Numbered from the stretch's first letter, positions 8,016-44,342 are shown. The stretch is DNA of 64,000 nucleotides from Dictyostelium discoideum (GCA_000004695.1 CM000151.3:4608001-4672000), one strand, 5' to 3'. A program made the numbers and translations. The notes: generated by a model not told the origin, from the sequence alone.

Positions 8016-8052
<37 letters not shown>

Positions 8053-8353
8053 TTTAAAACATACCCAATTCAAAAACAGGTGGTACTATAAATGGACAAT
8101 CAAAATTATTTAGGTAGTTGAAATCATTAAATGGACTTAAAATACTATTTGCACTAAATGGAGCCACAGGTTTAAGTGTATCTACAACTATTTCATAAAT
8201 ACCATCTCCTGCAAGTGATTGCAATGAATAAATTGAAGTACCCAATAAAAATTTAAAAACTTTGTAGCTATAACTAATATCAAGTCTAAGTAAATAAAAT
8301 CTATCATATTTATAAATGAATTGATTTGAATTAAATGTTGGGTAAGTTGAATC

Positions 8354-8387
<34 letters not shown>

Positions 8388-8879: not shown

Positions 8880-8948
<69 letters not shown>

Positions 8949-9719
8949 GAATAGTAAAAATAATAAATAATAATAGTTACCTGTGATATTATATTGTACT
9001 GAATCCCTTAAAGTACAAGATGCTTGATCTTGAGCGCAAAAAGTATAGTTAGTTAATACGCCATCATATGGTCTGTAATCATATAAACCTAAATAGGTTG
9101 TTGATAAATTATTGCCACCAATTATTCTAAAAATTGCAAATTGATTTGTAAAAAAATTGACCCAGGGCGACATATATGTTGAATTTGATGTAAATATAAA
9201 AAGAGGAGCATATAAATCACCCAAAACTTGAATATTTTGAGTTAATACCAATCTTGAAACACTCACTTTATCATAATCTAAAAAAAATTAATATTTAAAA
9301 TCGAAATTATGTATACATAATGTTCAAAAGTTAGAGTTTAAAAATAAATGAAAAAATAATAAAGAATAAAAAAAAAAAAACATTATTAAATAATAATTAT
9401 CTTACTTGTAAGAGAGTAATAATTAGGTGAAGTTACAGTTATAGTATCTTCAATTTCGGCTGATATAAATCCAGGACCATTTAATAACATAGGAGATAGA
9501 AATAATGCTTTACTCTGATAAATTGCAGCCATTCCAGTTCCTTTGCTATTTGGAATTTTACTATATGACTTTCCTTCAACTCCATTTAAATAAAATTGGA
9601 GGAGTATAAAACCAAATGGTGAGGCATTCATTCCTGAGAAAACAACTCCATTATTTGCAGTGGTAAGTTCTTTTTAAAAAAAAAAAAAAAAATTAAAAAA
9701 ATAAAATTAAAATTAAATT

Positions 9720-19712: not shown

Positions 19713-23312
<3,600 letters not shown>

Positions 23313-23679: not shown

Positions 23680-25744
23680 TTATTTAGTTGGCAATAGTTT
23701 TACATGTTTGATAAAGAAATGTGTGGGAATAGAGTTTATAAAATTTAAACTATCATTATAGATACAAATAAATTCAAATGAAGGTGGCCATATTAAATCT
23801 GGTAATTCATCACAATTATAACCTGTAAAATAAAATGATTTCAAATTAGGTGGTAAGGCATCTCTATCGATAGTTGAATTGAAAAAATCTGAAATTCGTA
23901 ATAAAGTGAGTGATGATGGTAATACATCTCTTTGAATTGGTTGTTTGTAACTTGGTAATTTTAATACCCCTATGGATGATGGTAGATCTCCAACATTTAA
24001 GGGTTGATTAAAATCATAGATTTTTAATTTTTTAAGATTATTTGGTAAGAGACTATCGTTTAATTCGAATTCATCTGAAACTGTTAAAACTAGTTTTGAA
24101 ATAGTAGGTGGGAATTTTACATCTGTTAAATCTATTTGACTTACATTGAGTTTCAACGATGTTAAATTTTTGAAAAAATCTAAAGAGTGTAAATGTGGGT
24201 TCCGAGTAGTGAAATTCATTATTTTTAGTGTTTGAATTGTTTTGGGTAATATTTGAATATCAGAGAATGCGTTCATTGATAAATTTGTAATTGTTGGTGG
24301 AAAGAGAGCTGCATTATCTTTGTTTCTACCAAGATGTAAAGTTTTAATTGAGATTGGTAATGAGTTTGGTTCAAGTTTATGATTGCCCGACTTGAATATC
24401 AATGATGTAACATTGTGTGGAATCATTCCTTTTTCAATGGTCTGATTAAAAAAAGAATCAAACTCTAATGAAGTTGTACCACCTGGTATAGATGTCGAGT
24501 CTAATTTATTAGTACCTCTTTTAGAATCAAAAGAATAATCAAGAGTTGTTACTGATTTTGGTATTGATCCATATAGAATTATTCCTTGATAATTTGGATC
24601 TAATATCAATGAGGTGAGTGATGGTGGTAATTCATCTCTATGAATTGAATGTTGAAATGATTTTCCAAAAGTTAAAGATTTTAATGTTCTTGGTAGCAAT
24701 GGTATACCATTTGTGTCACTTAATGATTGATTAAACTCATCACTAAAATCAATCGATGTTAGACTATTACCAATCATATTACGAGTTAATTGTTGATCAA
24801 AATCAATCAATGTAATGGACTTACATGTATCTGGTATCCAATGGTCTACTAGTATAATATCTGAACAATCCATCTCTATATTTTCCGCAATTTGTGGCAT
24901 TGGATACCAATTTGAGTAACGTTGGTTTTCATATCCATTTAAATCAAATAATCTGATGTTATTAAAATAATTTCTATATTTATATGTTGAAAAATTATTT
25001 ATCCCTATATCAAAGCTATTATTATGATTATTATATATTCTAAGATGAAATAAAATTTGATCCCTAATAACCATATTTCCCCAAATTTTTTTAAATAATA
25101 TATAATTATTATCAATTGTTTGATTTTTTAGTTGATTTGTTCTTATATTATTATTATTAATATCAGGTTGTGATTTTAAAATTAATTGATTTAAATTATT
25201 ATTATTAATGGTAATATGATGATTTAAATTATTTTTAATGATTATAAGTATTGAACAATCGAATGAAATTCTTTTATTTCTATTGTTAATTGTGTCATTA
25301 TTATTATTATCTGTAATTGAATGAGTATATATAATTTCATTATTAGAATTATTGGTTGTAAATGTGTTTTTTAAATTTTGAATATGATTATTTAGTGTTT
25401 GAAATTGTTGATCATTTAATCCTTTTAAATCATTTAAATGCTTTTTTTCATCTTCTTCTTGTCTATATAAATATGTTTTTATAATTAGTATAATAATAAT
25501 AAAAATAATAAAATAAAAAATATAAAATATCAAAGTGTGTTAACGTATACAATTTTTTTTCTTTTTTATTTTGAAGGTTTTCATTATTGTTTTTATAATT
25601 ATTGATACTATTACAATAATCTTGAAGTTGATTGAATGTAATATTTAAACTATTAATTGATAATATTAATAAACAATTTAAAAGCTCTTCATTGTTTTTA
25701 TTATTATAATTATTAATTAAATAAGAGTAAATTATATTATCCAT
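23680..25744 (-). CDS. FNIP-repeat protein, array copy G1: exon 1 25551..25744, exon 2 23680..25462
   Basis: Exon 1 is a 64-aa conserved N-terminal module (MDNIIYSYLINNYNNKNNEELLNCLLILSINSLNITFNQLQDYCNSINNYKNNNENLQNKKEKK). The intron is 88 nt, phase 2 (tt|GTATAC...tatatag|a). Exon 2 is an ~22-aa FNIP-repeat array (FNQSLSDTNGIPLLPRTLKSLTFGKSFQHSIHRDELPPSLTSL...). The MIFYIFYF... N-terminus of ORF 23680..25533 is intron translation. Confidence 0.65.
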
Positions 25745-26477
25745 TTGACACACAAAAAAAAAAAAAAAAAAGGAAATGTGTTGGTGTTTTTTATTTTAAA
25801 ACAATAAATTTAAATTTTTTTAATTTTTTTTTTTAAATAAATTTTTAAAATTTTTTTGATCCTCTTTTTTTTATCACCCAAGTGCACAGTAAAAAAAAAA
25901 AAACAATAAAAAAATTTCAAAATAAAAAAAAAATAAAAAAAAATAAAAATAAAAAAAAAAAAATATTAATAAATTAAAACACAATATTTGACCCATAACA
26001 TTAAATTTTCAAAAGATAATATTAGAAACAATGCTTTAAAAAATTTCAAAGTTAGATCAAAAAGCAAGGATTGTTTTTGCCATCGATAAGTTACTAGCAA
26101 TTAAGCGATGTGATATTTTCGCCAAAACATACCGAGATCCAGAGTGCTATAAAAGAATCACTGTTTTTTTTCAATTTAAATAGTGAGCCAAACGGTACCA
26201 ACATATCGAATTTTAATTTTTAAAAAAAAAAAAAAAAAAATTTCAAATACTATTAATTCCCATAGTAATTATGATTAAATTAATATAGGATGAAAAAGCC
26301 TTCCATGTCAATTTCAAAGGAAGATGCAAAAAAAAAATAAAAAATAAGGTGATCAATCAATCTTGCCTTTTTAAATAAATAAGAAACCCTTTACAATTTT
26401 TAAATTACTTTTAACTAAAATATCTTTTTATTTTTATTATTTATTATCATTATTTTTTATTTTTTTTTTAATTTTTA

Positions 26478-26620
26478 TAAAAGATCTTTTCTTGTTACAA
26501 TACCAACAACTTCATTCTTTTTATTTACAACAGGTAAATGTTTGTGAACCATTTGCTTGATTTTTTGAACGACATGGTGTAAAAGCTGCACAACAATATA
26601 AAATGGTCGATGTGATTAAT
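26478..26620 (-). other. Isolated CBS-domain-like coding fragment (C-terminal half of a CBS motif), probably a gene remnant
   Basis: Minus-strand ORF between TAA codons translates to ...RPFYIVVQLLHHVVQKIKQMVHKHLPVVNKKNEVVGIVTRKDLL*. This matches the CBS signature h.....hpHpLPVV-(x)n-LVGIIT..DLL. Confidence 0.25.
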
Positions 26621-26744
26621 TAAAATGAAATCTTCTAAAACAAATAAATAAATCTTTTTATTTGCAAAGAATTTACTTCTCAATTGAGACGTGCATTTAA
26701 ATTGACACCGAATAAACCACCTGCAACTGTTGCATTAAAATATT

Positions 26745-27411
26745 TATTTAAAAGTTCGTTTTATTAGTCTTGAAAATTTGATGAGGTTATTATAGTTTTT
26801 TCAAAGGTTTCAAGGGTTTTATCTTTAGATGTTGTTCTAAGTATTGTTTCAATACTCTTACTGAATTTTTTATTTCCCATTAGACGAAAATTTCTGAATT
26901 TTGAATAAACCGATGTATCGATATAGTTGAGCTCTGGTGTAAAGATGGATCTTTCAATAACAAATTGTTTTACCCATTCTCCAAGATGTTAATTGTCTTT
27001 CCAATGGAAGGTTTTAAATGGCCAATGTAAATGTAAAGAATATTTATCGTATTGATAGGAGAAGAGCAATAATGGTCCAATGCTATCGATTTCATCAGAG
27101 ACCTGTGGATGTGTTTTCTTTAGATGGGTTTTCACTTCGTCGATTATAATTCTATCGATAAGATTGTTTTTATAAAGTTGTTTGTTTCTTTTATTTTCTT
27201 CTGCTTTCTCGGGTGGTAACTTAAAATCAATATCTAAATACAAATTACAATTTTCAAATTGTGGAATCAATTCATAATAATGACGAAGATTCAATGGCGT
27301 ATTCATTATACATTTGAAGAGTTTTTCAATACTTGGAGATACTAAAAAAGTACGTTGACCTGTATCTCCAAATTCATATAAAAATATTTCAATAGAGCTG
27401 GCACTATTCAT
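26745..27411 (-). pseudogene. PrimPol-like archaeo-eukaryotic primase (AEP) domain ORF interrupted by an in-frame TAA: probable pseudogene or relic
   Basis: ORF 26989..27411 carries AEP motif I (CNLYLDIDFKLPPEKAEENKRNK; compare PrimPol CKLYFDLEFNKP...) and motif II (YSLHLHWPFKTFHWKDN; compare FSRHLIFQLHDVAFKDN). It ends in TAA. The same frame then continues HLGEWVKQFVIE... with motif III (IDTSVYSKFRNFRLMGNKKFSKS; compare VDLGVYTRNRNFRLYKSSKIGK) to a stop at 26745. The stop sits where PrimPol has DN-I-HVGNF. No UL52-type zinc-finger C-terminal domain follows. Confidence 0.55.
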
Positions 27412-28149
27412 ATAATTAAATGATATTGTTTACTTTGATACATCGGTTTTGTATGGAGTTGTATTTTTACAAACTGCTAATGATTTGAAAATCATAAACA
27501 ATCAAACCTATTCGAATTGACTAACGTTTTACTATCAAATGATTTCAAATATTAATTTCGAAAATGCTGAAGTAACCATATTAAAAGTCATACCACCCAT
27601 AGATAAGTGTATGGAACAAATTAACCAAAGAGGTAGAGCCTTTGAAGTCAGTAGTTTATCCATGTTTCCAAATTAACCGATAAAATTCGATCTCATTGTG
27701 TTAGTCAAGTTTTATCAAGACTTGAAAAACCAAAAAAATGCTGTATCGATACAAAAGCAATGATGACCTGTTCAATGACATTTTCTTTAATGAAAATCCA
27801 AACTCAATTCCCACACCATCCAATATTCCAACTCAATCTCTTCAAAGTTCACACTTAAATCTCAGTTTTTATTACCCATCGAATCAAGAGCAATATTTTA
27901 ATATTCAAGATAAATTGAATTAATAAAACTAAATTCTAAATAATACTATAAAAAAAAAAAAAAAAAAAAAAAAATAAAAATATATTTAAATTAAATAAAA
28001 AAAGAAAAAAAAATGTCTACATTTGCCGATCTTCGTTCTGTTTACGGTGCCTTACTAGGTGGTATGGGTAGTATTGGTGCTTACTTTATTTATTCCAAAC
28101 CAATAGATGGGTTTCATTAAAAGAATATTTTAGAAAAGATTAAGGTTTT

Positions 28150-28742
28150 TATTTTAGAATTAATTGATATAAATTATTATTATTATTAATATTTTTATTA
28201 TTATTAATGGTGATATGATGATTTAAATTATTTTTAATGATTATAAGTATTGAACAATCGAATGCAATTCTTTTATTTCTATTGTCAATTGTGTCATTAT
28301 TGTTATTATCTGTAATTGAATGAGTGTATATAGTTTCATCATTAGAATTATTGGTTATGAATGTATTTTTTAAATTTTGAATATGATTATTTAGTGTTTG
28401 AAATTGTTGATCATTTAATCCTTTTAAATCATTTAAATGGGTTTCTTCCTCTTCTTCTTGTCTATATAAATATGTTTTTATAAATTGGTATAATAATTAT
28501 AAAAATAATAATAAAAATATAAAATAATTAAAGTGCGTTGATGCATACAATTTGTTTTCTTTTTTTTTTTGAAGGTTTTGATAATTGTTTTTATAATTAT
28601 TGATACTATTACAATAATCTTGTACTTGGTTGAATGTAATATTTAAATTATTAATTGATAATATTAATAAACAATTTAAAAGCTCTTCATTATTTTTATT
28701 ATTATAATTATTAATTAAATAAAAGTAAATTATACTATCCAT
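28150..28742 (-). pseudogene. Truncated 5' fragment of an FNIP-array gene (exon 1, intron and first ~110 codons of exon 2)
   Basis: Exon-1 module is MDSIIYFYLINNYNNKNNEELLNCLLILSINNLNITFNQVQDYCNSINNYKNNYQNLQKKKENK (ORF 28497..28742). The fragment is collinear with 25140..25744 of G1. Homology stops abruptly at ~28150. Confidence 0.6.
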
Positions 28743-29235
28743 TTGATAGCCAAATTAATTTTATCAAATAAAAAAGAAAAAAAAATGGTACTTTTTTTTT
28801 AATTTTGGTATTTAACTTTATTTTTTTATTATCAACATTAAATACTTTTTCTTAAAATAATTAATTATCAAAAAAAATGCGCCCATTCCCTTTTTTTAAA
28901 TTTTTTTTATTAACCTAGATATTTTTATTTTGATAAATTTTATGATAAAAAAAAAAACAAAAAAAAAAAAAAATCTAAAAAAATCACTGGTTGGTAAAAG
29001 CTTTTTTTTTAAAAAAAAATAGTTTTTCGTGATTTTGGCAAAATTTCATTTTTATATGAACATGTAAAAGATCGGCCAACATTAAAAAAAAAAAATATAT
29101 TTTTTTTTTTTTTTTAAATCAGACTGTTTTTTAGAGAGTTTTATTTAAAAACCACAATATACCACTTGGGATCACAAAAAATAAAAAAAAAATAAAAAAA
29201 ATTAAAACATTTGCATTAAAAAATTTATTTAAAAA

Positions 29236-31295
29236 TTAATAATTTAATTTCCCACGTTTTAATAGTTTTGTATGTTTGATAAAGAAATCTGTGGGAATAG
29301 AGTTTATAAAATTTAAACTATCATTGTAGATATAAACAAATTCGAATGAAGGTGGCCATATTAAATCTGGTAATTCATCACAATTATAACCTGTAAAATA
29401 AAATGATTTCAAATTAGGTGGTAAGGCATCTCTATCGATAGTTGAATCGAAAAAATCAGAAATTCGTAATAAAGTGAGTGATGATGGTAATACATCTTTT
29501 TGAATTGGTTGTTTGTAACTTGGTAATTTTAATACCCCTATAGATGATGGTAGATCTCCAACATTTAAGGGTTGATTAAAACCATAGATTTTTAATTTTT
29601 TAAGATTATTTGGTAAGAGACTATCGTTTAATTCGAATTCATCTGAAACTGTTAAAACTAGTTTTGAAATAGTAGGCGGGAATTTTACATCTGTTAAATC
29701 TATTTGACTTACATTGAGTTTCAACGAAGTTAAATTTTTGAAAAAATATAAAGAGTGTAAATGTGGGTGGGAACGAGTAGTGAAATCCATTATTTTTAGT
29801 GTTTGAATTGTTTTGGGCAATAGAAACACTTCAAGGCATTCATGTATTGATAAATTTGTAATTGTTGGTGGTAATTGAGCTGAATAGTCTTTGTTTCTAC
29901 CAAGATGTAAAGTTTTAATTGAGATTGGTAATGAATCTGGTTCAAGTTTATGATTGCCCGAACCGAATTTCAATGATGTAACATTGTTTGAAATCACTCC
30001 TTTTTCAATGGTCTGATTGAAAAAATAATCAAACTCTAAAGATGTTGTGCCACCTGGTACCGATGTTGAGTCAAATTTACATGTACCATCTTTAGAATCA
30101 AAATAACAATGAAGAGTTGTTACTGACTTTGGTATTGATCCATATAGAATTACTCCTTGATATTTTGGATCCAATAATAATGATGTAAGTGATGGTGGTA
30201 TTTCGTCTCTATGAATTGAATGTTGAAATAGTTTTCCAAAAGTTAAAGATTTTAATGTTCTTGGTAACCATGGTATACCATTTGTATCACTTAAAGATTG
30301 ATTAAATTCATTACCAAAATCAATAGATGTTAGACTATTACCAATGATATTACGGGTTAATTGTTGATCAAAATCTATAAATGTAATGGATTTACATGTA
30401 TCTGGTATCCAGTGTTCTCCAAGTATAATATCTGAACATCTCATCTCTATATTTTCAACAATTTGTGGCATTGGATAACAATTTGAGTTACGTTGGTTTT
30501 TATAGCCATCAGAATCCAATAACTTGACATTATTAAAATAATTTCTATATTTATATGTTGAAATGTTATTTCTCCTTATATCAAAGCTATGATTATGATT
30601 ATTATATATTCTAAGATGAAATAAAATTTGATCCCTAATAATCATATTTCCCCAAAACTTTTTAAATAATATATAATTATTATCAATTGTTTGATTTATT
30701 TGTTGATTTGTTTTAATTTTATTATTAATATCAGATTGTGATTTTAAAATTAATTGATTTATATTATTATTATTAGTGAGATGATTTAAATTATTTTTAA
30801 TGATTATAAGTATTGAACAATCGAATGAAATTCTTTTATTTCTATTGTTAATTGTGTCATTATTATTATTATCTGTAATTGAATGAGTATATATAATTTC
30901 ATTATTAGAATTATTGGTTGTTAATATATTTTTTAAATTTTGAATTTGATTATTTAGTGTTTGAAATTGTTTGTCATTTAATCCTTTTAAATCATTTAAA
31001 TGCTTTTTTTCCTCTTCTTGTCTAAAAATGTTTATAAATTAGTATAATAATATAATAATAAAATATAAAATATAAAATAATCAAAGTGTGTTAATGCATA
31101 CAATTTTTTTATTTTTTTTATTTGAAGGTTTTGATTATTGTTTTTGTAATTATTGATACTATTACAATAATCTTGAAGTTCATTGAATGTAATATTTAAA
31201 TTATTAATTGATAATATTAATAAACAATTTAAAAACTCTTCATTATTTCTATTGTTATAATTATTAATTAAATAAGAGTAAATTATATTATCCAT
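29236..31295 (-). CDS. FNIP-repeat protein, array copy G3: exon 1 31102..31295, exon 2 29236..31021
   Basis: Exon 1 is MDNIIYSYLINNYNNRNNEEFLNCLLILSINNLNITFNELQDYCNSINNYKNNNQNLQIKKIKK. The intron is 80 nt, phase 2 (tt|GTATGC...tttttag|a). Exon 2 is open from the acceptor through stop 29236 (RQEEEKKHLNDLKGLNDKQFQTL...MIIRDQILFHL...FNQSLSD... FNIP repeats). The 3' ~500 nt are nearly identical to G1. Confidence 0.6.
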
Positions 31296-31515
31296 TTGAT
31301 ATTCATAAAAAAAAAATAATAAATAATAAAATGGAATTAAAAAAGTAAGATTGACTTGTACAGAAATAGTTTTTCCTAAGGGATAACCAAAAAAAGGCAC
31401 TTTTTTTTGGCCCTCAAGGTGAAAAATAAAATTGGAACTTCCTGTGGGTAATTGAGTTAATTATGAAAAACTTAGTGATTTAGAATAAACCAAATTATTA
31501 AAAAATTTTCATTCC

Positions 31516-31555
<40 letters not shown>

Positions 31556-31676
31556 ATGAATGCATGGCTTAAACTTTTAAATAATATTAAACAATATTTG
31601 CTAAAATCTATTGTAAAATTAAATTTAAAATGTAATTATTAGTATTTAAAAAAAAATAAAAAAAAAAAATGAACTT

Positions 31677-31712
<36 letters not shown>

Positions 31713-32338
31713 AACCCCGAAAAAAAAAAAAAAATAAACTCAAAAAAAAAATAAACTCAAAAAAAAAATCACAAATAAAAAACAAACCCTTTTTCTATTT
31801 GAGCCCTGGTATTTCTGATTTTTTTTTTTTTTGGAAATTATTCTTTTTATTCTATTTATTTTTTTTTTAAATTTTTTTAATAACCTTGTTTATTCCCCAA
31901 TAACTTAATCTTTTTCAAAAACTTTTTTTTTTTTACAATAACTCAATTTTTCAAGGAATGGTTCACCAGCAAACTTTTTTTTCACTTTGTTTTATTAAAA
32001 TTTTAAGTAAAAAAAAATAAAGAAATAATAAAAATTCTCTTTTTTTAATAAACTATTATTTTTTTTTTCAATTTATAACTTTTTTATAAATTTCTATTTT
32101 ATAACTTTTTTATAAATTTCTATTTTATAACTTTTTTTTTTTTTTAAATCTTAAAAAAAAAAAAAAAAAAAAATAATAATAATAAAAGCCAATAATAGTA
32201 ATAAAATTTTAAAAAACTAATTACAAAATTTTCATTATCAAATTTTATTTATTTAGTTCATTTTTTTTTTCTGATTTTTTTTTTTTTTTTTTGATTTGAT
32301 TTAAATTAATTCGATTTTATTTTTTCAAAAAAATTAAT

Positions 32339-32379
<41 letters not shown>

Positions 32380-32779
32380 TTGGTTGGAATGCCAAGCTTC
32401 AGTGGCAGAATGTTCAGTCAACAATCAAACAGTAAATAATACAATTTCAATCATTCATTAAAAATTTATTATTTTATCAAAGCAACAAATTCTGATCAGT
32501 GCGACTATATCTTTTGAAATTTATTAGCAGCAGTTGATTATTTTATGGTTGCAACAACTCTAATAGGATGAATTCTAGTAACAAACAGATAATCTACTTG
32601 TCGATGGCAAATATTGTTCAACATTCACAACTAATTGATAGAACTGATTCAATAGAAGTTTTATATCAACTCTTGATATTTGCCAATATGTTTGGACCAA
32701 TAATAATAACAATGGTAAAGAAGAATCAGATGAGCCAATATTAAAAGTTGGTAATAATGTTTAGGTTCATTCAATACTG

Positions 32780-34340
32780 GAAAACTTAGAAACCTCCAAT
32801 AAAGTGAGTGATGATGGTAATACATCTTTTTGAATTGGTTGTTCGTAACTTGGTAATTTTAATATCTCTATCGATGATGGTAGATCTCCAACATTTAATG
32901 GTAGATCGAATTCATATATTATTAATTTTTTAAGATTATTCGGTAGGAGACTATTGTTTAATTTGAAATTTTATAAAACTGTCAAAGTTAGTTTTATAAT
33001 GGTAGGTGAGAATTCTACACCAGTTAAATCCACTCCAATTGCATTAAGTTCCAATGATTTTAAATTTTCAAAAATATGGAAAGAGTGGCTATCTAATTGG
33101 GTAAAATTATTTGAACCAATTATTTTTAGTTTTTCAATTGTTTTGGGCAATATTCCGATGTCAGAGAATGTAACAATTGATAAATTTGTAATTGTTGGCG
33201 GAAAGACTTTTTGAGTAAAAATGGTTCTGTTTCGACCTAGACCTAAAGTTTTAATTGATATTGGTAATGAATTTGGTTCAAGTTTATAATCGCCCATACG
33301 GAATTTCAACGATGTAACATAGTGTGGAATCATACCTTTTTCAATGGTCCCATTATAATAAAAATCAAACTCCAATGAAGTTGTACCACCTGGTACCGAC
33401 GTTAAGTCAAATTTATATATGTCGTGTTCTTTAAAAAATAAAGAATAATGAAGAGTTGTTACTGATTTTGGTATTGATCCATATTGGATTACTCCTTTGT
33501 ACACTGGAATAAATATTAGTGTTGTAAGTGATGGTGGCATTTCATCTCTATGAATTGAATGTTGAAATGATTTTCCAAAAGTTAAAGATTTTAATGTTCT
33601 TGGTAACCATGGTTCACCTTTTGTGTCACTTAACGATTGATTAAATTCATTACTAAAATTAATGGATGTTAGACTATTACCAATAATGTTACGGGTTAAT
33701 TGTTGATCAAAATAGGTAAATTTAATGGATTTACAAGTATCTGGTATCCAATGATCTACTAGTATAATATCTGAACAATTCATCTCTATCTTTTCTGCAG
33801 TTGATGGCATTGGACAACAATTTGAGATATTTTGTTGGTGGTTGTTATTCTCATCAGAATTCGATATGTTGGAATTATTAAAATAATTTCTATATTTATA
33901 TGTTGAAATATTATGTCCCCCTATATCAATGCTATAAATGATTCTGATTATTATATATTCTAAGATGAAATAAAATTTGATCCCTGATAAATATATTTCC
34001 CCAAACTTTTTTTAAATAATATAATTATTATCAAGTGTTTGATATATTTGTTGATTCGTTCTTACTTTATTAATATCAATTAATTTTAAAATCACAACCT
34101 GATTTAAATTATTGCATTTATTATTACTATTATTGGTGGTATGATTTAAATTATTTTTAATGGTGATATGATGATTTAAATTATTTTTAATGATTATAAG
34201 TATTGAACAATCGAATGCAATTCTTTTATTTCTTTTTGTTAATTGTGTCATTACTATTTTCTGTAATTGAAGGTTTTGATTATTGTTTTTATAATTAATA
34301 CCATTACATTAATCTTGAAGTTGGTTGAATGTAATATTTA
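32780..34340 (-). pseudogene. Decayed FNIP-array copy G4: truncated at both ends, internal deletion fusing exon-2 and exon-1 sequence
   Basis: ORF 32971..33810 holds the FNIP-repeat core (...FNQSLSDTKGEPWLPRTLKSLTFGKSFQHS...). The C-terminal coding stops matching at ~32780. The 5' side (33810..34340) is homologous but shows frameshifts and a deletion, then runs into a non-AT-rich block at 34350. Confidence 0.55.
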
Positions 34341-34484
34341 AATTATTAACATCCAAGCCATGATCGCTTAGAAGGGCTTGTATTAACCCGTTGGCACGAA
34401 TAGCCCGGACAGCAGGACAGCCCTTAAAAAAAATTTTAAAAAAAAAAGGGCTGGTTTCAAGATTTTTTTTTTTTTTTTAAAATA

Positions 34485-35195
34485 AAAAAGGACCACACAG
34501 GCTTATAAAAAGAATTAATTTGTCATAAAAATTAAATGTAATAAACGTATTAAAAAAATTTTAAAATTTTAAAATGTAATGAATGTATTAAAAAAATTTT
34601 ATAATTTAAAATGTAATAAACGTATTAAATTATTAAAAAGAAATGTATTATTTTAAATAAAAAAATAATAGATATTTAAGTGTTATGAAGGAAGTTTTTT
34701 TTTATTTAAGTTTAATAAATTTAAATTAAAGCATGGAGATTTGTCACATTAATTTTTTATTTTTCGAGAACCTGCCTCTCTCTTTTTGACTCAGACATTT
34801 TTTTTTTTTTTATTTTTTTTTTTTTTTTTGGCTTGAATATTTTGTCGGCAAGCTGCCGAAAGAATTAATGTGATCATTTTTACCGGCCGGTAGTTTTAAT
34901 ATGGGAACCATTAGTTAATATGTATTGTCACTACAGTCTTTTGCGGTGTTTTGTTTAAAGTTGATTCTTTTCAAATATTGGGACTTCCCATATAAAACTA
35001 CCGGCCGGTAAAAATGTCACATTAATTCTTTCGGCAGCTTGCCGACAAAATATTCAAGCCAAAAAAAAAAAAAAAAAATAAAAAAAAAAAATATCTGAGT
35101 CAAAAAATCACATAAAAAAAAAAAATGAGCGAAATTTTTTGACAATCTGGTTTATTAATTCAAATTATTATTTTAATAATAATAATAATAATTTT

Positions 35196-35249
<54 letters not shown>

Positions 35250-35530
35250 CTGAGTCAGTTTTTAAAAAACAAAAAAAAAAAAATTAATGTGACAAATTAT
35301 TAAATAGTTATTTATTGAAATATTTATTTTCGTATGTGCGACTGACTGTGTCTTTTATTTTTGATATTTTCTTTGTATGATTTTGGTTTATTATTTGAAA
35401 TAAATAAATTCATTGGAAGTGCCACCATTTAAATTTTTTTTTTTTTTTTGGGAAAAAACAACATGTGTATTTGGATCCATTTGAAAAGATTGTAAAAAGG
35501 ACTACACAGGCTTATAAAAAGGTTTTTTTT
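34485..35530. mobile_element. Composite non-coding element: ~27-bp direct repeats at both ends, 33-bp tandem repeats, and a nested ~310-bp perfect hairpin with TTGTCACATTAAT termini. MITE-like, non-autonomous DNA-transposon-like
   Basis: AAAAGGACCACACAGGCTTATAAAAAG at 34487 and AAAAGGACTACACAGGCTTATAAAAAG at 35497. (aaatgtaataaacgtattaaaaaaattttaaaattttaa)x3 at 34545..34650. Long inverted repeat arms gactcagacattttt...ggcttgaatattttgtcggcaagctgccgaaagaattaatgtgatca (34788..34895) against tgtcacattaattctttcggcagcttgccgacaaaatattcaagcc...atatctgagtc (35022..35100). Extra terminus copies at 34742 (ttgtcacattaat) and 35246..35295 (atatctgagtc...attaatgtgacaa). No ORF. Confidence 0.45.
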
Positions 35531-35739
35531 AAAAAAAATTAAAAAAAAAAAATAAAAACAATAAAAAAAACGATAAAAACATTACAATTTTTTAATTTTT
35601 TGTTAATTAATGTTCTTTTAAATAAAAAAAAATATATAAAAATAAAAAATAAAAAAAATAAAATAAAACAATTACATCAAAACAGTTGTTTTAAAAATTA
35701 ATATTTTTATTTTATATTTTTTTTTTTTTAAAATTGTTC

Positions 35740-37821
35740 ACTTTGTAATAGTTTTACATGTTTGATAAAGAAATGTGTGGGAATGGAATTTATAAAATCT
35801 AAACTATCACCACAGATATAAATAAATTCAAATGAAGGTGGCCATATTAAATCTGGTAATTCTTTACAACCATAACCTGTAAAATAAAATTATTTTAAAT
35901 TTGGTGGCAATGCATCTCTATCCATACTTGAATTGAAAAAATCTGAAACGCCTAATAAAGTGAGTGATAATGGAAATAAATCTTTTTAAATTGGTTGTTT
36001 GTACTGTGGTAGCTTTAATACCTCTATTGATGATGGTAAATCTCCAACATTTAATGGTTGATTAAAATTAAATAATTTTAATTTTTTAAAATTATTTTGT
36101 AAGAGACAATCATTAAATTCCAAATAATCTGAAACTGCTAAAGTTAATCTTGAAATAATATTTGGGAATTTTACATTGGTTAAATCCACCTGTTTTGCAT
36201 CAAAGTTCAATGATGTTAAATTTTTAAGAAAATAAAAAGAGTGGTTATCTAATTGGGAAGGAGGACTAAAATCCATTATTTTTAGTTTTTGAATTGTTTT
36301 CGGTAATATTTTGATATCAGAGAATGTATATACTGATAAATTTGTAATTGCTTGTGGGAAGACATCTCGAGGAAAGTTTTGGTTGCTACCAAGATGTAGA
36401 GTTTTAATTGAGATAGGTAATGAATTTGATTTAATTATACTATTGCAGAAACTGAATTTCAACGATGTAACATTGTGTGAAATCATACCTTTTTCAATGG
36501 TCTGGTCAAAAAAAGAATCAAACTCTAATGATGTTGTACCACCTGGTATCGATGTTGAGTCTAATTTAGCACCACCCTTAGAATCAAAATAATAATGAAG
36601 AGTTGTTACCGATTTTGGTATTGATCCATATTCGATTACTCCTTTATATTTTGGATCCAATATTAATGATGTAAGTGATGGTGGTATTTCGTCTCTATGA
36701 ATTGAATGTTGAAAAGATTTTCCAAAAGTTAAAGATTTTAATGTTCTTGGTAACCATGGTATACCATTTTTGTCACTTAATGATTGATTAAAATCCTTGC
36801 CAAAATCAATGGATGTTAGACTATTACCAATGATATTACGAGTTAATTGTTGATTAAAATGCGAAAATATAATGGATTTACATGTATCTGGTATCCAGTG
36901 GTCTACTAGTATAATATCTGAACATCTCATCTCTATCTTTTCCACAATTTGTGGTATTGGATAACAATTTGAGTTATGTTGGTCGCATAAGCCATTAAAA
37001 CTCAATAACTTGACATTATTAAAATAATTTCTGTATTTATATGTTGAAATATTATTTCTCTTTATTTCAAATGCTATGATTATGATTATTATATATTCTA
37101 AGATGAAATAAAATTTGATCCCTGATAAATATATTTCCCCAAACTTTTTTAAATAATTTATAATTATTATCAATTGTTTGATCTATTTGTTGATTTGTTC
37201 TTATTTTATTATTTAAATCAGGTTGTGGTTTTAAAATCAATTGATTTAAATTATTACTATTATCATTATTTTTAATGGTGATATGATGATTTAAATTATT
37301 TTTAATGATTATAAGTATTGAACAATCGAATGCAATTCTTTTATTTCTATTGTTAATTGTGTCATTACTATTATTGTTATTATCTGTAATTGAATGATTA
37401 TATATAACTTCATCATTAGAATTATTGGTTGTAAATGTGTTTTTTAAATTTTGAATATGATTATTTAGTGTTTGAAATTGCTGATCATTTAATCCTTTTA
37501 AATCATTTAAATGCTTTTTTTCCTCTTCTTCTTGTCTATATAAATATGTTTTTATAAATTAGTATAATAATAAAAATAATAATAAAAATAATATATAAAA
37601 CAATCAAAGTGTGTTAATGCATACAATATTTTTTTTCTTTTTTTTATTTGAAGGTTTTGATTATTGTTTTTGTAATTATTGATACTATTACAATAATCTT
37701 GAAGTTGGTTGAATGTAATGTTTAAATTATTAATTGATAATATTAATAAACAATTTAAAAACTCTTCATTGTTTTTATTATTATAATTATTAATTAAATA
37801 AGAGTAAATTATGTTATCCAT
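35740..37821 (-). pseudogene. FNIP-array copy G5 with a +1 frameshift near 37080 and a premature stop at 35986: probable pseudogene
   Basis: Exon 1 is intact (MDNIIYSYLINNYNNKNNEEFLNCLLILSINNLNITFNQLQDYCNSINNYKNNNQNLQIKKRKK, start 37821). Exon 2 has a 1-nt insertion (catagcAtttgaaata vs G3 catagctttgatata), so the acceptor frame hits TGA. ORF 35986..37173 stops at ...YKQPI*, where intact copies continue another ~95 aa. The homologous tail 35740..35985 contains further stops. Confidence 0.5.
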
Positions 37822-37991
37822 TTGATATTAAAAAAAAAAAAAAAAAAAAATCTCCAAAAAAAAAAAAAAAAAAAAAAAAAAATATCTCCAAAAAAAAAAA
37901 AAAAAGCTTTTTTTTTTGGGGCAGTGTTTTTTTTTTTTATTTTTAAATTTTTATTTTTAAACTTTAATAACAAGAAAAACATTTTATAATA

Positions 37992-40064
37992 TTATTTTAA
38001 TCTAATATGGTTGGTAAAGAAGTCAAGATCAATTGAATTGATGAAATTAAAGCTGGCTTCTGAGATATAAGCAAATTCAAATGAAGTTGGCCATATTAAA
38101 TTTGGTAATTTTCTAAGTTCACGACCATGAAAATAAAATAATTTTAAATTTGGTGGTAATGCATCTCTTTGTATGGTTGAAATGCAATGATCTTGTAATT
38201 TTAAAACATTGAGTGAAGAAGGTAAATCACCATTTTTTATTGGGTAATCATAATTGGGTAATTTTAAAACTTCAATTGAAGATGGTAAATCACCATTGGC
38301 AATTGGGTGGTTAAATTCTTTAAGTTTTAATTTTTTGAGTGAATTTGGGAAGATTCCATTACTCAATTTTAAATTTGGGCAACTTAATACTATTCTTAAA
38401 AGTGTATTTGGAAAAACCCCTTCTTCTAAAACTGAATCAGATAGTTTTTCAATTTTTAATGATGTTAAATTTCTAAAATTATTAAATGAGATTTTTGATA
38501 AATTAAAAAAACTTGTTATTTTTAAAGATTCTATTGATTTTGGTAAAAAGCAACTATGATAATCACCATAAATTGATAATTTTTTAATATTAGGTGGTAA
38601 GATATTATCACTATCCAATTCAATTGAACCTATTCTTAATGTTTTAATTGATAGAGGTAATGAATTTGGTTCAATTTCAATTTTAGAAATATTATCAATT
38701 TCCAAAGATGTTACATTAATGGGAATCATATCTTTTTTGATTGTTTGATTAAAATAACAACCAATTTTTAATGAGGTTACACCTTTACTAATTGATTTTG
38801 TATCAAAATGATTTTTTCTGATTGTGAAAAATTCATAATGAAGAGTTGTAACTGATTTTGGTATTGATTCATTTAAGATTATTCCTTGATATTCAGAGTC
38901 CAAAAATAGTTCTGTCAATGATTGAGGTAATTCATTTCTTTGAATTGTTTGTTGAAATGATTGACCTAGACTTAAAGTTTTAAGTTTCTTGGGTAACCAT
39001 GGTAATCCATTTGAATCACTCAATGGTTGATTAAATGAATTTCCAAAGAAAATTGTAGTCAAACTATTACTAATTATATTTCTATTTAATTTTTGTTGAT
39101 TAAAGTTATGAAAATAAATTGATTTACATGTATCTGGTATCCAATGATCACCTATTGTAATACTTGAACAATCAACTTCAACTCTTTCAACTCCATATGG
39201 TAATGGATAAAAACGATTTGTTAATGGGGTAAATCCAATTTCGCCATTATTATCCTCAATTATTAATTTAACATTTTTAAAATAATTTCTATATTTATAT
39301 GGTGTAATCTCTTTTATTGGAATCCCATAAAAACCACAATTAAGATTATTATATATTTTAAGATGAAATATAATTTGTTTCCTAATAATCATATTTCCCC
39401 AAACTCTTTTAAATAAATTATAATTTCTTTCAAAGCTGTTTGAATTATTTTTTAATTTATTATTATTATTATTATTTAAAATTTCTTTAGAATTATTAAT
39501 AAAAATACAAGTTTCTTTAAAATTATTATTATTATTATTATTATTAATTGTGATGAGATGATTTAAATTATTTTTAATGATTAAAAGTATTGAACAATCA
39601 AATGCGATTCTTTTATTTCTATTGTTAATTGTTTCATTATTATTATTATCTGTAATTGAATGTTTATATATAATTTCTTCATTGAAAATTTTGCTATAGA
39701 AGATATTTAAAATTTGTGTATGATAATTTACTATTTCAAACTGTTGTTCATTTAATCCTTTAAAATCACATAAAAAATCATTTTTTTCATTTCTATTTAT
39801 AAAACATAATAATAATATTAATTTTTATTAGTGATAAAAATAAAATTTATTATAAGGGTATATATGTATATTTTTTTTTTTATTTATTTAAATATTTATA
39901 CAAACAATAATGTTTTTCTTTTTAAATTATTATTATAACAATAATTTAATAATTCATTAAAAGTTATATTTAAATTATTAATTGATAATATTAATAAACA
40001 ATTTAAAAATTCTTCATCATTGTTACCGCAATCATAATTATTAATTAAGTATGAATAAAAAATA
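37992..40064 (-). CDS. Divergent FNIP-repeat protein, array copy G6: exon 1 39898..40064, exon 2 37992..39792
   Basis: Exon 1 is MESIFYSYLINNYDCGNNDEEFLNCLLILSINNLNITFNELLNYCYNNNLKRKTL. The intron is ~105 nt, phase 2 (tt|GTTTGT...ataaatag|a). Exon 2 is open from NEKNDFLCDFKGLNEQQFE... through MIIRKQIIFHLKIYN...FNQPLSDSNGLPWLPKKLKTLSLGQSFQQTIQRNELPQSL... to stop 37992. Confidence 0.55.
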
Positions 40065-40101
40065 CTCTCCATTTTGTAATTATTTAGGTTGTGTGATGTT
40101 G

Positions 40102-40325: not shown

Positions 40326-43179
40326 TTATTTTTTAATATTTGTTACAGAGTTATTGCTATTAGTACTACTACTATTAGTTGATAGTGATGGTGAATTACT
40401 ACCACTGCCACTACTATTATCATCTTCAAACATTTTCACTTTATTTTTAACTAAATTGCTATTATTTAATTCTTCAGGAGTGATTACATGTCTCTTTAAA
40501 TCACTACTACTTGAATTACTATTACTATTAAAAGCAAAACCATCACTAGAACTTGATAATGGTGATGATGATGAACTTGTTGTAAATCGTTTCATTATTG
40601 ATGGTGATGCCCTTCCTGTCATTGTTGGTGAAATATCAACTCCACTTCCACCTCCATTACTGGAACTACTATTACTATTTGTTGTTGTTGTTGTAGAAGA
40701 ATTATTTACAGCAGACATTATTGCACTGTTTGGTCTAAATGAAGAATTTGAACTTGAAATTGAACCAGAACTTCTAAATGATGATTGTCTTGATAAAACT
40801 GGTGATGTTGTGGTTGTTGTTGTGGTTGTTAAGGATGAATTGACTGAATTTGTTAATGGTGAATTTGAAGATGGAGGGGATGATGATAATTTCTTTTCAT
40901 TTAAATTTGTAGCTGATAGTTTTGATTGCATTTGTTTTGGTTGAGATGTTGTATGTTGATTTTGTTTAATCTCTTCCAAAGCTAATAATATTGGTGATAA
41001 TTGTTGTTGAAGATTTATATTGATTTTATTAATAATTGAAGATTCCAATTGTTTAATTTCATTTTTAATATCATTAACAATCTTTTGATTAGAGCTATCA
41101 ATATAAGTGAATAATTTAGTTTCCAATTGTTTAAATTCATTCGTCATACTAATTGAAAATGGTGGTGTAATTGGTAATGGTTTATTTGGTGCAACATGTA
41201 AAAGGTTATTTCCACTTCCACTTTTTCCAATTGTTGATAAATTATTTTTTTTATTTTTCTTTTTATTTGATTTCTTTGTTGACTTATTTTTCTTCTTTCT
41301 AACAACCATTGTACCTGTTGCTGAAATTTCTTCATCTTCATTAATTTCATCATCATCTTCTTCTTCTTCTTCTTCTTCCTCATCATCTTCTTCTTCATCT
41401 TCTTCTTCATCATCTTGATCAGATGTAACACCACCATTACCATTACCACTACCTTTCTTTTTACCATGGAAAATAGTTGTACTAAATGGATCAACATCTT
41501 CATCATCCTCATTTTCATCATCATCATCCTCATCATCTTGTTCATCATCTTGTTCATCCTGATTATTATTTAAATGTTTTGAATCTTCCTCTTCTTCTTG
41601 GAAATCTCTACAAGTTGTATAATTTCCTTTGAAACTTAACATACCTTTGGAAGAGGTTGCTAATTTTAAAGAATTATTACAATTGTCCAATTCATCAGAA
41701 GGTGATGATGGTATTGGTGAAATGATTGAAGTTGATAAACCATCTGAACCAATATCTCCACCATTTACAGTTGCATTTGGTGATTGTGGTGATGATGATG
41801 ATGAAGATTGTGAAGTTTGATGTTTTTGTTGTTTTTTTAAATCATCAATTTTCTTTTTCTTAATTTTAAATAATTGATTAACCAAATCTGATAAAACATC
41901 AGGACCTCTATCTTTTTTAAGGAATGGATGACAAAGTAAATCGATTGGTGACGCTCTTTTCTCTGGATCTTTAACTAAACATCTTGCCAAGAAATCATTT
42001 AATAGAGGTGACCATTTTTTAGGTTCAGCAAATGTTGGAGGTGGCCAATTTGGTACCATTTTCATTGCTCTCATTGGTGGCAAATCAATATGTGGTGGTA
42101 AACCATCTGCCATTTCAATGATGGTGATACCTAATGACCAAATATCAGCTTTATAATCGTAATTCTTTTTTAAGATAACCTCAGGTGCCATCCATAATGG
42201 TGTACCAATCATCTCTTTAGATTGATCCAATGCACCATTTAATTTCTCTGAAACACCGAAATCTGCAATTTTCACATCACATCCTTCACTTAGTAATACA
42301 TTTGCTGCCTTTACATCACGATGAATAATATTTTGACTATGTAAATAAATTAAACCTTTGAGTGTGTTTTTCACAACAAATGAAATTTGTGCCTCGTTTA
42401 ATGTTTTCTCTGTTGATTCAATTATATCTCTAATACTACCTAAAGCACAGAAATCCAATAGAATCCAAATATGGGATTCAGTTTGAAGTGAACCAAAATA
42501 AGAGACGATATTTGGAGATTTACAATTTTTTAAAATATTAATTTCATTTTGAAGTGAAACACTCTCTGATTCTTTCATTTCAATAACTTTAATTGCTAAT
42601 GTAAATCCTAAATCTTTATGTGTACCTTTATAAACTGATCCATATGCACCATCACCTAATTTCTCATCCAATATAAAATCATTATGTCCTGTCCATTTCA
42701 AATCAAAATCAACATGCATCTTATGTATAACATTATATGGTACTGATATTTCTGTATTTATATCAAATGTTGATTTAGTTTTCTTATGTGATTTTTTATT
42801 AGTAGTTGTTGCTGCTGTTGTGTTTGGTGATGATATTGCTAATGATGATGATGATGGTGATGATGTTAATGATGATGTTGTTGATGGTGTTGTTGTTGAT
42901 GATGATAATGATGATTCTTTATGATGATGATGATGTTTAAATATTTCAGGTGTTTTTAAAAACTTTTTCTTTTTCTTTTCTTTTAATGGTTGATCATTTG
43001 ATGGTCTTGGTGAAATTAATCCATTTGGAGAAGTTTCACTCGAACCACCATTTGTAGTTTGAATTTCAACATTTTGTTGAGTTGGTGTACTTGGTAATTG
43101 TGAAATTGATGATTGTAATAATTTTGGTGATGAAATAAATTGTGCAATTTTACGTGTTAATTTTCTTGATTCATGAGTA

Positions 43180-43268
<89 letters not shown>

Positions 43269-43478
43269 ACTTGATGATAAATCTTGATGTTGTTGTTCAC
43301 TCGAATCAATATTTGAATTTAATGTTTGATTTGGTGACATTGAATAAGTTTCTGTAGTTGTATTTGAATCATCAGTACTAATATTACTTGAATGTCTTTG
43401 TAAATTTGGTTGACCACTATTACTTCCACTTGAACTGCTTGAAATAATTGATACTGAACTTTCAGTTCTTGCTAATTG

Positions 43479-43564
<86 letters not shown>

Positions 43565-43856
43565 CACTATTTTCATTATTCAATAATGAAAATTCACCAC
43601 CTTCAATACTGCTACTATTTCTAATTTGATGTGGTGGCGGGGGTGGTGTATAATTTGGTGGTAATTGACTTGGTGAATTAGTGGTTGTATCTTTCACTTC
43701 ATTACTACCACTATTACTTAAATTATTATTACTATTATTACTGGAAAATGAATTTAATAAATTTTGAGTTGATGGTGATTTCATGACTTTTTGGAAAAAT
43801 GATGAGGATTCTTTTTGATTTCCATTGTTGTTATTACTCAATTTTAGATTTGACAT
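40326..43856 (-). CDS. STE20-family (GCK/MST/PAK-related) serine/threonine protein kinase with central kinase domain, long poly-N/S/T N-terminal region and acidic (D/E) plus poly-T/S C-terminal region
   Basis: Kinase subdomains: GxGxxG (LGDGAYGSVYKG), VAIK (LAIKVIE), HRDVKAANVLL, DFG (ADFGVS), GTPLWMAPEV (STE20 signature, subdomain VIII), DIWSLGIT. The ORF track starts at 43985, but its first 43 codons translate a poly-A/T tract. The ATG at 43856 (MSNLKLSNNNN) is the more plausible start. ORFs 40354..40944, 41107..41418, 41144..41557 and 41629..41820 are antisense or alternate-frame artefacts. Confidence 0.7.
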
Positions 43857-43910
43857 TTTTTTTTTTTGTTTTGTTTTGTTTTTATTTTTTTTTTTGTTTT
43901 GTTTTGTTTT

Positions 43911-43945
<35 letters not shown>

Positions 43946-44342
43946 TCTTTATGTTGTTTTGTGTTGGTATTGGTTTGTTTAGCAATTAATTTTTTGTTTT
44001 TTTTTATTTTTTTTTATTTTTTTTTAATACTTTAACAAAATGATAAAAAAAAATTTATATTGCGGTAATTTTTTACTTTTTTCTTTTTTTTTTTTTCTTT
44101 TTTTTAAAATTCATAACCCACGCAATATTATTCCACAAAACAATACCCACAACTGGATTTTTTAAAATTGATTTACAAATTTGAAGTATAGATTAGAAAA
44201 AAAAAAAAATAAAAATAAAAAAAAAAAATAAAATAAAAATAAAAAAAAATGAAAATAAAAATCTTGTTTTTCAAATAAAAGATTAAAAATTTTCACATAA
44301 ATTGGCCAAATATCCGTCAAATTTACATTTCAACCTTTTTCC

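Follow-up and report, generated by a model that had tools for sequence, protein, structure and literature searches.

Repeats of the FNIP/FGxxFN (IP22) type, one kind of leucine-rich repeat (LRR), are among the most abundant domains of Dictyostelium proteomes (PMC13487327, PMC9525666), and 557 Dictyostelium FNIP/FGxxFN sequences have been reported (PMC9525666). Two solved viral proteins, CroV588 (PDB: 6nyr) and CroV539 (PDB: 7zal), are built from these repeats of about 22 residues, LxxLxF(G)xxFNQxI...LPxx. The social 'cheater' gene chtB (DDB_G0290617) also encodes an FNIP protein, which shows that a member of the family can have a developmental or social phenotype (PMC3559258). Here we examine a stretch of 64,000 nucleotides from chromosome 2 of Dictyostelium discoideum AX4 (GCA_000004695.1, CM000151.3:4608001-4672000), referred to below as the window. 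Its minus strand carries, between 23680 and 40072, six head-to-tail FNIP paralogues, of which three are intact, two are pseudogenes and one is a 5' fragment. They are named, in the order of their coordinates, G1, Gf (the fragment), G3, G4, G5 and G6. The array shares its repeat family and its organism with chtB and with cmbB, which encodes a calmodulin-binding IP22 protein, but lies at a different locus from either.

The proteins of the array have the same repeats as the CroV proteins. Compared with CroV588, however, their repeats are less regular, and several are without FG or FN. Furthermore, the CroV proteins consist of the solenoid only, with short caps, whereas the array proteins add an N-terminal helical region of about 200 residues for which there is no Pfam family. 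A likeness in overall layout is offered by the giant-virus proteins labelled 'F-box and FNIP repeat-containing' (Megavirus baoshan, mimivirus and others), in which an N-terminal helical element is likewise followed by an FNIP solenoid.

At the level of the locus, plant NLR (nucleotide-binding LRR) and RLP (receptor-like protein) clusters are birth-and-death tandem LRR gene clusters. The array is like them in its head-to-tail paralogues, its pseudogenes and fragments, its presence/absence variation and its conversion between paralogues, as well as in its transposon insertions and the faster evolution of solvent-exposed LRR positions. Unlike the plant proteins, those of the array have no nucleotide-binding or signalling domain, and omega at exposed positions is below 1 in all pairwise comparisons, so that a recognition arms race is not demonstrated.

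The array is a birth-and-death family: its same-strand paralogues are intact, dead or truncated, and their state differs between isolates. We consider it probable that the six genes constitute such a family of intracellular recognition or adaptor LRR proteins with a conserved docking domain. Birth-and-death dynamics of tandem genes are ordinary, and current understanding is not overturned. What is new is an N-terminal domain that defines a Dictyostelium-only FNIP subfamily, the history of the locus across strains, and three corrections to the annotation.

The tandem array and its intact genes

When the 64-residue module encoded by exon 1 was compared with the window by tblastn, matches were obtained at 25744, 28742, 31295, 34356, 37821 and 40072 (E values 1e-35 to 1e-11), the one at 34356 being partial and interrupted by an in-frame stop. 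Beyond these six copies, the search of the 64 kb gave one match at chance level (1232-1140; E value 0.08; 29% identity). DNA self-comparison resolved repeat units of 2.0-2.2 kb, in which G1, G3 and G5 are mutually 85-91% identical, G4 is about 80% identical to these three, and G6 is about 70% identical to the other copies. The first-pass annotation of this DNA had described a minus-strand tandem FNIP-repeat array with intact, decayed and truncated copies, among which G6 was divergent. Both statements are borne out, while its count of five or six copies can be fixed at exactly six units.

Exon 1 is 87-100% conserved among the five non-G6 copies. In the full copies it ends in ...TT and is followed by a phase-2 intron with the donor GTATGC, GTATAC or, in G6, GTTTGT, and the acceptor ...ATAG|A. 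Throughout the copies of all genomes examined, D. dimigraforme among them, the TT|GT intron occupies an identical site. Its length across the copies is 80, 87, 88, 89 or 113 nt. The shared phase-2 position that had been noted earlier is thus real, whereas the proposed length of about 80-105 nt has to be widened to 80-113 nt, and G4 has lost the intron. All five long exon-2 open reading frames (ORFs) match the FNIP family PF05725 at 122-153 bits (E values 1e-36 to 2e-45; cut-off 21 bits), with seven matched stretches each, as the assignment of exon 2 to FNIP repeats had led one to expect.

G1 (23680..25744, minus strand) encodes 658 residues. Exon 1 extends from 25744 to 25551, the intron from 25550 to 25463 (88 nt, TT|GTATAC...ATAG|A) and exon 2 from 25462 to 23680, and the FNIP match has an E value of 2e-45. 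The spliced model is identical to ACTFIT_003598 of a newer D. discoideum annotation. G3 (29236..31295, minus strand; 659 residues) has an 80-nt intron at 31101-31022, and its spliced model is 100% identical to DDB_G0274637. The divergent but intact G6 (37992..40072, minus strand; 655 residues) has a 113-nt intron at 39905-39793 (TT|GTTTGT), and its spliced model is identical to DDB_G0274631 (XP_644215.1). It is a member of the array, as had been stated, but its ATG is at 40072 and not at 40064. Existing annotation lists the array genes as hypothetical 'FNIP repeat-containing proteins'. In the intact proteins no enzymatic domain could be recognised.

Solenoid, N-terminal helical region and constraint

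A full-length AlphaFold model of G3 was obtained from an alignment of 46 sequences (mean pLDDT, the predicted local distance difference test score, 82.8; pTM, the predicted template modelling score, 0.65). In this model residues 210-652 form a solenoid of about 20 beta-strands, and the intact proteins are accordingly predicted to be FNIP/FGxxFN-type LRR solenoids of about 18-20 repeats. The best fold match in the PDB is CroV588 (6nyr; E value 1.1e-18), the archetypal FNIP/FGxxFN LRR protein. CroV539 was matched too, followed by generic LRR proteins, and the neighbours in BFVD are giant-virus FNIP proteins.

Ahead of the solenoid, residues 3-206 are predicted to be helical (residues 3-16, 20-30, 37-57, 65-75, 81-100, 122-147, 153-158 and 167-206), and the last long helix leads straight into the solenoid. 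The pLDDT is 85-94 over residues 1-50 and 70-93 over the helices at 81-100 and 122-147. It falls below 50 only at residues 60-63, which comprise the intron site and a K-rich linker, and at residues 150-174, an N-rich insertion. According to the model, the N-terminal helical region comprises about 200 residues, and exon 1 supplies its first three helices. The sequence blocks conserved past the intron, GLNxxQFQxL, FDCSILIIIxNN and NYxLFKKVWxNxxIRxxILFHLRLYN...YKYRNY, agree with this prediction that exon 1 is part of a larger domain.

The N-terminal region matched no Pfam family, and a profile search of the PDB gave no sequence relative. An earlier word-indexed profile search had returned five matches and was swamped by low-complexity candidates. 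It was superseded by an exhaustive profile search of 1.84 billion representative proteins, which gave 45 matches only, and those whose source was looked up are all from Dictyostelium (discoideum, citrinum, firmibasis and dimigraforme). About 14 of the 45 span the whole N-terminal region, while about 30 match the last block only (profile positions 170-239), and do so at their own N-terminus. The N-terminus is therefore two-layered, with a widespread, cap-like pre-repeat helix and a subfamily-specific extension of about 180 residues, and the helical region, as far as profile matches indicate, is confined to group-4 Dictyostelium. The extension also occurs at unlinked loci, among them DDB_G0268254, DDB_G0277387, DDB_G0268570 and DDB_G0268362 (about 14 clusters of FNIP proteins). 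It was never seen joined to anything but an FNIP solenoid, and only truncated pseudogene products have it without the downstream blocks.

These observations bear on an alternative in which exon 1 is a self-contained, array-specific module of 64 residues that was joined to FNIP exons by exon shuffling, in an array that has expanded recently. The high conservation of exon 1 among the five non-G6 copies, and the fact that it always ends at the same phase-2 intron, are what such a history would leave. Conservation and predicted helices cross the intron, however, and the module is present in unlinked genes, one of which, DDB_G0268570, is intronless. The age of the duplications, considered in the next section, likewise does not fit a recent expansion, and we regard this alternative as very unlikely. 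The first-pass annotation had suggested a distinct targeting or interaction domain specific to this subfamily. A conserved, Dictyostelium-only region is indeed present, but it is neither limited to 64 residues nor specific to the array, since it also occurs at the unlinked loci listed above.

The layout, a helical N-terminus directly before an LRR solenoid, is analogous to that of F-box proteins, and the array proteins might be divergent F-box proteins serving as substrate receptors of Skp1-Cullin-F-box (SCF) complexes. Two versions were tested, one in which the pre-repeat block is the F-box, and one in which the F-box is split, so that FDCSILIIIKNNL, NQLILKS and, beyond the N-rich insertion, LFKKFWGNMI would bind Skp1 while the FNIP solenoid would pick substrates. 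AlphaFold places three helices (122-147, 153-158 and 167-206) ahead of the first strand. Many of the structural neighbours in BFVD carry the label 'F-box and FNIP repeat-containing', these giant-virus proteins matching the G3 model with E values from 1e-14 to 1e-10. F-boxes are frequent in giant-virus FNIP proteins, fusions of an F-box to FGxxFN repeats are known from Megavirus baoshan (PMC9525666), and the Skp1 interactors of Dictyostelium include LRR/FNIP proteins, with very divergent, insertion-bearing F-boxes being accepted (PMC9485057). A role as substrate receptor would be analogous to that proposed for the giant-virus proteins, and to that of the Dictyostelium interactors (PMC9525666, PMC9485057).

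The sequence comparisons nevertheless speak against both versions. Neither three N-terminal regions nor 33 pre-repeat blocks matched any of the F-box families (PF00646, PF12937 and relatives) at E values up to 10. Profile searches of the PDB for F-box relatives gave nothing, and hhalign against 32 published Dictyostelium F-boxes gave a probability of 0.2% for the family region and 0.5% for the pre-repeat block. In contrast to the F-box and FNIP proteins, those of the array thus have no F-box detectable by hmmscan, PDB profile search or hhalign, and both the contiguous and the split reading were rejected at this level. In addition, about 30 FNIP proteins begin at the LFFKIWRN block and are therefore without the proposed helices 1 and 2. 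The array genes, DDB_G0277387 and DDB_G0268570 are not in one supplementary file of the Skp1 study (PMC9485057), although absence from one proteomic study is no proof. In sum, an F-box identity for this region appears unlikely, although a structurally cryptic element that binds Skp1 is conceivable.

Selection was estimated by the method of Nei and Gojobori on codons projected from the G3 reading frame onto the alignment, with omega as the ratio of nonsynonymous (dN) to synonymous (dS) divergence. Against their orthologues in other isolates, omega is 0.18-0.24 for G3 and 0.15-0.26 for G6. For the other orthologous groups, which are numbered by their position in the array (G5 at position 1, Gf at position 3 and G1 at position 4), it is 0.37-0.60. 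By these estimates G3 and G6 are clearly constrained genes under purifying selection. In deep comparisons the lowest omega in the protein is that of exon 1, 0.22 between G3 and G6 and 0.14 between G3 and D. dimigraforme, where dN is 0.17 and 0.10 for exon 1 as against 0.35 and 0.39 for the FNIP body. The N-terminal domain is hence estimated to be the most constrained part of the protein, which, together with the lack of a Pfam match, upholds the earlier description of the module as neither FNIP-like nor of low complexity. Within the repeats, the predicted ligand-facing (concave) positions have an omega* of 0.14-0.83 as against 0-0.32 for the scaffold, and evolve faster in most comparisons.

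These figures also address the possibility that the family as a whole has no function and is drifting, so that its 'intact' members are pseudogenes not yet hit. Half of the AX4 copies are dead, omega reaches 0.4-0.6 in positions 1, 3 and 4, and copy number varies freely between isolates, all of which would be expected of such a family. Against it stand the omega of 0.15-0.26 for G3 and G6 over a dS of about 0.07-0.17, the omega* near 0-0.2 of scaffold residues, and the omega of 0.14-0.25 of exon 1 over a dS of about 0.7. Moreover, chance would not keep frames of this length, about 655 codons, open in four isolates when the genome is AT-rich. We give this possibility very little weight.

The arrangement that we favour has the following elements. 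The proteins appear, from inspection of their sequences, to be intracellular. The concave face of the solenoid, which evolves faster, would bind variable targets, and the slowly evolving N-terminal domain would bring every paralogue to a single shared partner or location, or else would oligomerise them. This combination of an intracellular, target-binding solenoid scaffold with a common N-terminal module for docking or oligomerisation is put forward tentatively, and we rate its chances as approaching even. A bolder version, which we think rather unlikely, is that the region of about 200 residues is an undescribed Dictyostelium-specific docking domain that couples variable FNIP solenoids to one effector, with the strain-variable array as a recognition repertoire. 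If that were true, the N-terminal domain would be functionally analogous to an F-box or to the signalling domain that immune LRR receptors carry, and the repertoire might, for example, be aimed at giant viruses or intracellular bacteria, or be used in kin or social interactions. The roles of the abundant Dictyostelium FNIP proteins are almost uncharacterised, and the conserved N-terminal domain provides a handle for pull-downs.

Several results weigh against this account. The N-terminal fold matched no known fold, the LRR part dominating every fold search. When residues 1-233 were modelled alone, from 16 sequences, AlphaFold returned a low-confidence prediction (pLDDT 38.7), so the confident full-length prediction leans on the 46-sequence alignment and on the context of the solenoid. 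The omega of about 0.4-0.6 in positions 1, 3 and 4 could reflect relaxed constraint. At ligand-facing positions omega never exceeds 1 in pairwise comparisons, so that diversifying selection on the binding face, although possible, is not demonstrated. A literature search for the six array gene identifiers found no publications. Finally, the older AX4 model of G1, DDB_G0274949 (600 residues), skips the conserved exon 1. It begins instead with a mini-exon of seven codons, MHVSIEK, at 26676-26696 on the minus strand (ATGCACGTCTCAATTGAGAAG|GTAAAT), inside the spacer upstream of G1, with an implied intron of about 1.2 kb that passes over exon 1. The first exon of DDB_G0274949 is probably a mis-annotation, the true first exon being missing from the model.

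History of the locus in isolates and in D. dimigraforme

The AX4 array was compared with the orthologous arrays of three other isolates, FIR (loci L001 and L003), FIY (L002 and L004; 'cf. discoideum') and FIW (L005), and of D. dimigraforme (L006). Orthology was assigned by nearest-neighbour analysis in three segments of the gene. This analysis groups the copies by position, and the AX4 copies have positional orthologues in all three isolates. The orthologues of G6 are the G6 copies of the other arrays, which are intact. The pseudogene G5 corresponds to FIR_1, FIW_1 and FIY_1 at position 1, of which FIW_1 (667 residues) and FIY_1 (669 residues) are predicted to be intact and FIR_1 has a full-length body. 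G3 corresponds to position 2 and is intact elsewhere. The fragment Gf corresponds to position 3, which is full length in FIR (FIR_3, prediction P0003, 691 residues) and in FIW (FIW_3). G1 corresponds to the position 4 copies FIR_4, FIW_4 and FIY_4, again intact elsewhere. The distal copies FIR_5, FIR_5f, FIR_6 and FIY_5 (a pseudogene) are missing from AX4. Beyond G6, there are in FIR six full-length copies and two fragments, in FIY four intact copies and one decayed copy, and in FIW, whose locus is cut, at least four copies, as compared with two intact copies, two pseudogenes and one fragment in AX4.

Identity is 94-99% between orthologues and 85-91% between paralogues. Since paralogues have diverged further than orthologues, the duplications predate the split of the isolates, and at least seven array positions were present before the sampled D. 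discoideum isolates diverged. The locus of D. dimigraforme is syntenic on both sides, the kinase gene being found upstream and, downstream, the SH3 gene together with a large gene, but contains only one intact copy, one truncated copy and one fragment. This synteny makes the site of the array older than the species split. Both the site and the separation of G6 from the other copies predate the divergence of D. discoideum and D. dimigraforme. The AX4 array thus shows loss, decay, insertion and conversion, and not recent duplication, as far as the compared sequences record it. Of the earlier statement that the array is turning over by duplication, conversion and decay, the last two processes are upheld, while duplication in AX4 is contradicted by paralogues that are older than the strain split.

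Conversion is indicated for the 3' end of G1. Over a tract of about 450 bp within G1, at approximately 23800..24250 on the minus strand, G1 is 96.4-98.6% identical to AX4 G3, compared with 90.7-94% to its own orthologues FIR_4 and FIY_4. In the flanks of the tract G1 and G3 are 86-90% identical. The diagnostic sites, of which there are about ten in the tract, change from the position 4 type to the position 2 type at about 24366-24204. The 5' and middle parts of G1 are nearest to the position 4 orthologues and its 3' third is nearest to AX4 G3. Such discordant similarity inside and outside a tract is a signature of gene conversion and, though the diagnostic sites are few, suggests that, within the AX4 lineage, sequence of the G3 type converted the 3' end of G1. 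That G1 and G3 have nearly identical 3' ends had already been ascribed to gene conversion, and the contrast between tract (96-98.6% over about 24250-23800) and flanks is in agreement with that explanation. A single locus with intact, recently killed, truncated and converted copies that differ between strains can be used to ask whether these genes matter.

The comparison also speaks to the idea that the locus is, or derives from, integrated DNA of a giant virus or virophage. FNIP repeats are abundant in Mimiviridae and CroV, the nearest solved or predicted structures are viral FNIP proteins, and a PrimPol-like remnant of the archaeo-eukaryotic primase (AEP) type at 26764-27411, inside the array, has a weak match to Pfam AEP_C962R. 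Nonetheless, the guanine-cytosine (GC) content is host-like throughout, the spliceosomal intron is conserved across strains and species, and flanking synteny holds on both sides in four genomes and on one side in a fifth. The PrimPol-like piece, as described below, belongs to filler DNA of the AX4 lineage that the other arrays do not have and that was copied from a host repeat family with dispersed members. The window yielded no further viral hallmark genes. We consider a viral origin extremely improbable.

Several features are particular to single isolates. In FIW only (GCA_054859355.1), a gene for a 650-residue DDE_Tnp_4/HTH_Tnp_4 transposase of the PIF/Harbinger type lies between the G6 orthologue and position 1 (L005, 7694-9810). 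In FIR, the predictions of 913 residues (L001, 1029-4341) and 1139 residues (L001, 15835-20452) each represent a full copy fused with a neighbouring fragment, FIR_1 being part of the former. The fused fragments, FIR_1f and FIR_5f, are internally deleted or 5'-truncated. A fragment equivalent to FIR_1f is found in FIW (L005, 12195-12574), so that this type of fragment is old, and it may be the counterpart of AX4 G4.

Disabled copies, inserted DNA and neighbouring genes

The first-pass annotation had described G4 and G5 as carrying frameshifts, stops and deletions, and their lesions could be located. G5 (35728..37821, minus strand) is a young pseudogene of full length with an 89-nt intron at 37624-37536. 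Its frame is shifted by +1 at about 37072 and interrupted by TAA codons at 35988-35986 and 35892-35890, and its N-terminal 221 residues are annotated as the protein DDB_G0274633. G4 (32760..34356, minus strand) is an old pseudogene, annotated in part as DDB_G0274411 (a piece of 406 residues). Its first 27 codons and its promoter are gone, its 3' end is lost, and a deletion has eliminated the intron along with the end of exon 1 and some 40 codons. In-frame stops are found at about 34311 (TAA), 32973 (TAA), 32769 (TGA) and 32763 (TAA), along with several frameshifting indels (at least seven indels within the gene). No close orthologue of G4 was found among the arrays compared, the nearest copies being at most 88% identical. 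The corrections to the reference genome accordingly concern the first exon of DDB_G0274949 and the pseudogene pieces DDB_G0274633 and DDB_G0274411, which are annotated as proteins.

Between G5 and G4 there is an AX4-specific insertion of 1.28 kb (34357..35640, no strand assigned), without an ORF, which adjoins the truncated 5' end of G4 and has no counterpart in the arrays of FIR, FIW, FIY or D. dimigraforme. It contains direct repeats of 27 nt (34485-34511 and 35494-35520), and it also has a palindrome some 320 bp long, with arms at roughly 34783-34897 and 34994-35106 and the core AAAACTACCGGCCGGTAAAAATG. By these features it resembles a non-autonomous transposable element. Because the insertion directly abuts the break, its arrival probably caused the 5' truncation of G4. 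No transfer RNA (tRNA) genes were found in the window, so that a tRNA-targeted TRE retroelement does not account for the insertions.

The 5' fragment, which had been placed at 28150..28742, was found to run from 28742 to about 28143. Gf (28143..28742, minus strand) represents array position 3 and retains exon 1, an 87-nt intron (28548-28462) and about 100 codons of exon 2, its ORF stopping after 168 residues. In place of the FNIP body of this copy there is filler DNA of the AX4 lineage (26756..28079, minus strand), which none of the three other strains has in its array. Two blocks of the filler, 89.5% and 93.9% identical, are collinear with an unlinked locus, L007, of another strain. Since it has no counterpart in the other arrays and is collinear with L007, the comparison indicates that the FNIP body of position 3 gave way to about 1.3 kb of filler, for which a dispersed PrimPol-like repeat was the template.

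The filler includes a pseudogene of the PrimPol-like (AEP) type at 26764-27411 on the minus strand, with an in-frame TAA at 26989-26991. AEP motifs I (DxD), II (SxH) and III (hDxxxY...RxFRLxGSxK) are present as LYLDIDF, SLHLHW and YSKFRNFRLMGNKKF, respectively. The remnant matches human PrimPol in the PDB (5l2x/7jk1; E value 8.6e-8) and Pfam AEP_C962R with 22.7 bits, just under the cut-off of 23. L007 contains an intact homologue of 365 residues (8001-9124). The family is multi-copy in Dictyostelium genomes, with several loci per genome at 72-94% identity. Its longest members (365-371 residues) end in a UL52-type Cys/His motif, and this zinc-finger part is missing from the remnant in the window. 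As the intact copy of L007 adjoins a weak match to the YqaJ exonuclease and a retrotransposon reverse transcriptase, the PrimPol-like family may belong to a mobile element not yet described.

A small ORF in the filler (28013-28120, plus strand; MSTFADLRSVYGALLGGMGSIGAYFIYSKPIDGFH) encodes 35 residues that apparently form one hydrophobic helix. It has no Pfam match, and the block that holds it is the one that is 89.5% identical in L007. Next to the filler, the ancestral spacer between positions 3 and 4 (25945..26782, minus strand) is 84-85% identical to the matching spacers of FIR and FIW. A CBS-domain tail of 38 residues (PF00571; E value 2.4e-8) is stranded in this spacer at 26475-26591 on the minus strand, and the prediction for the position 3 gene of FIR (P0003) runs on into the CBS remnant. 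Two imperfect inverted repeats, 71-72% identical and about 140-160 bp long, are found at 25809-25947, in the spacer upstream of G1, and at 32143-32305, between G4 and G3.

The GC content is about 22% along the whole window, whose ORFs abound in poly-N and poly-Q. Upstream, the array is flanked by a Ser/Thr (STE20-like) kinase gene at 40326-43985 and by an Rrn7/TAF1B gene. Downstream it is flanked by a gene for a family-A DNA polymerase (19713-23312, minus strand; PF00476, E value 1e-75) with a long N- and Q-rich N-terminal exon. By tblastn the polymerase gene is present in FIR and FIY, and it was not found in the 20.8 kb compared from the syntenic locus of D. dimigraforme. Two further genes in the window are unrelated to the array. 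One, at 17298-19388, encodes a triple-SH3 protein of 696 residues, and the other, at 5288-7969, a ComC-supersandwich/DUF7034/DUF7035 protein of 893 residues.

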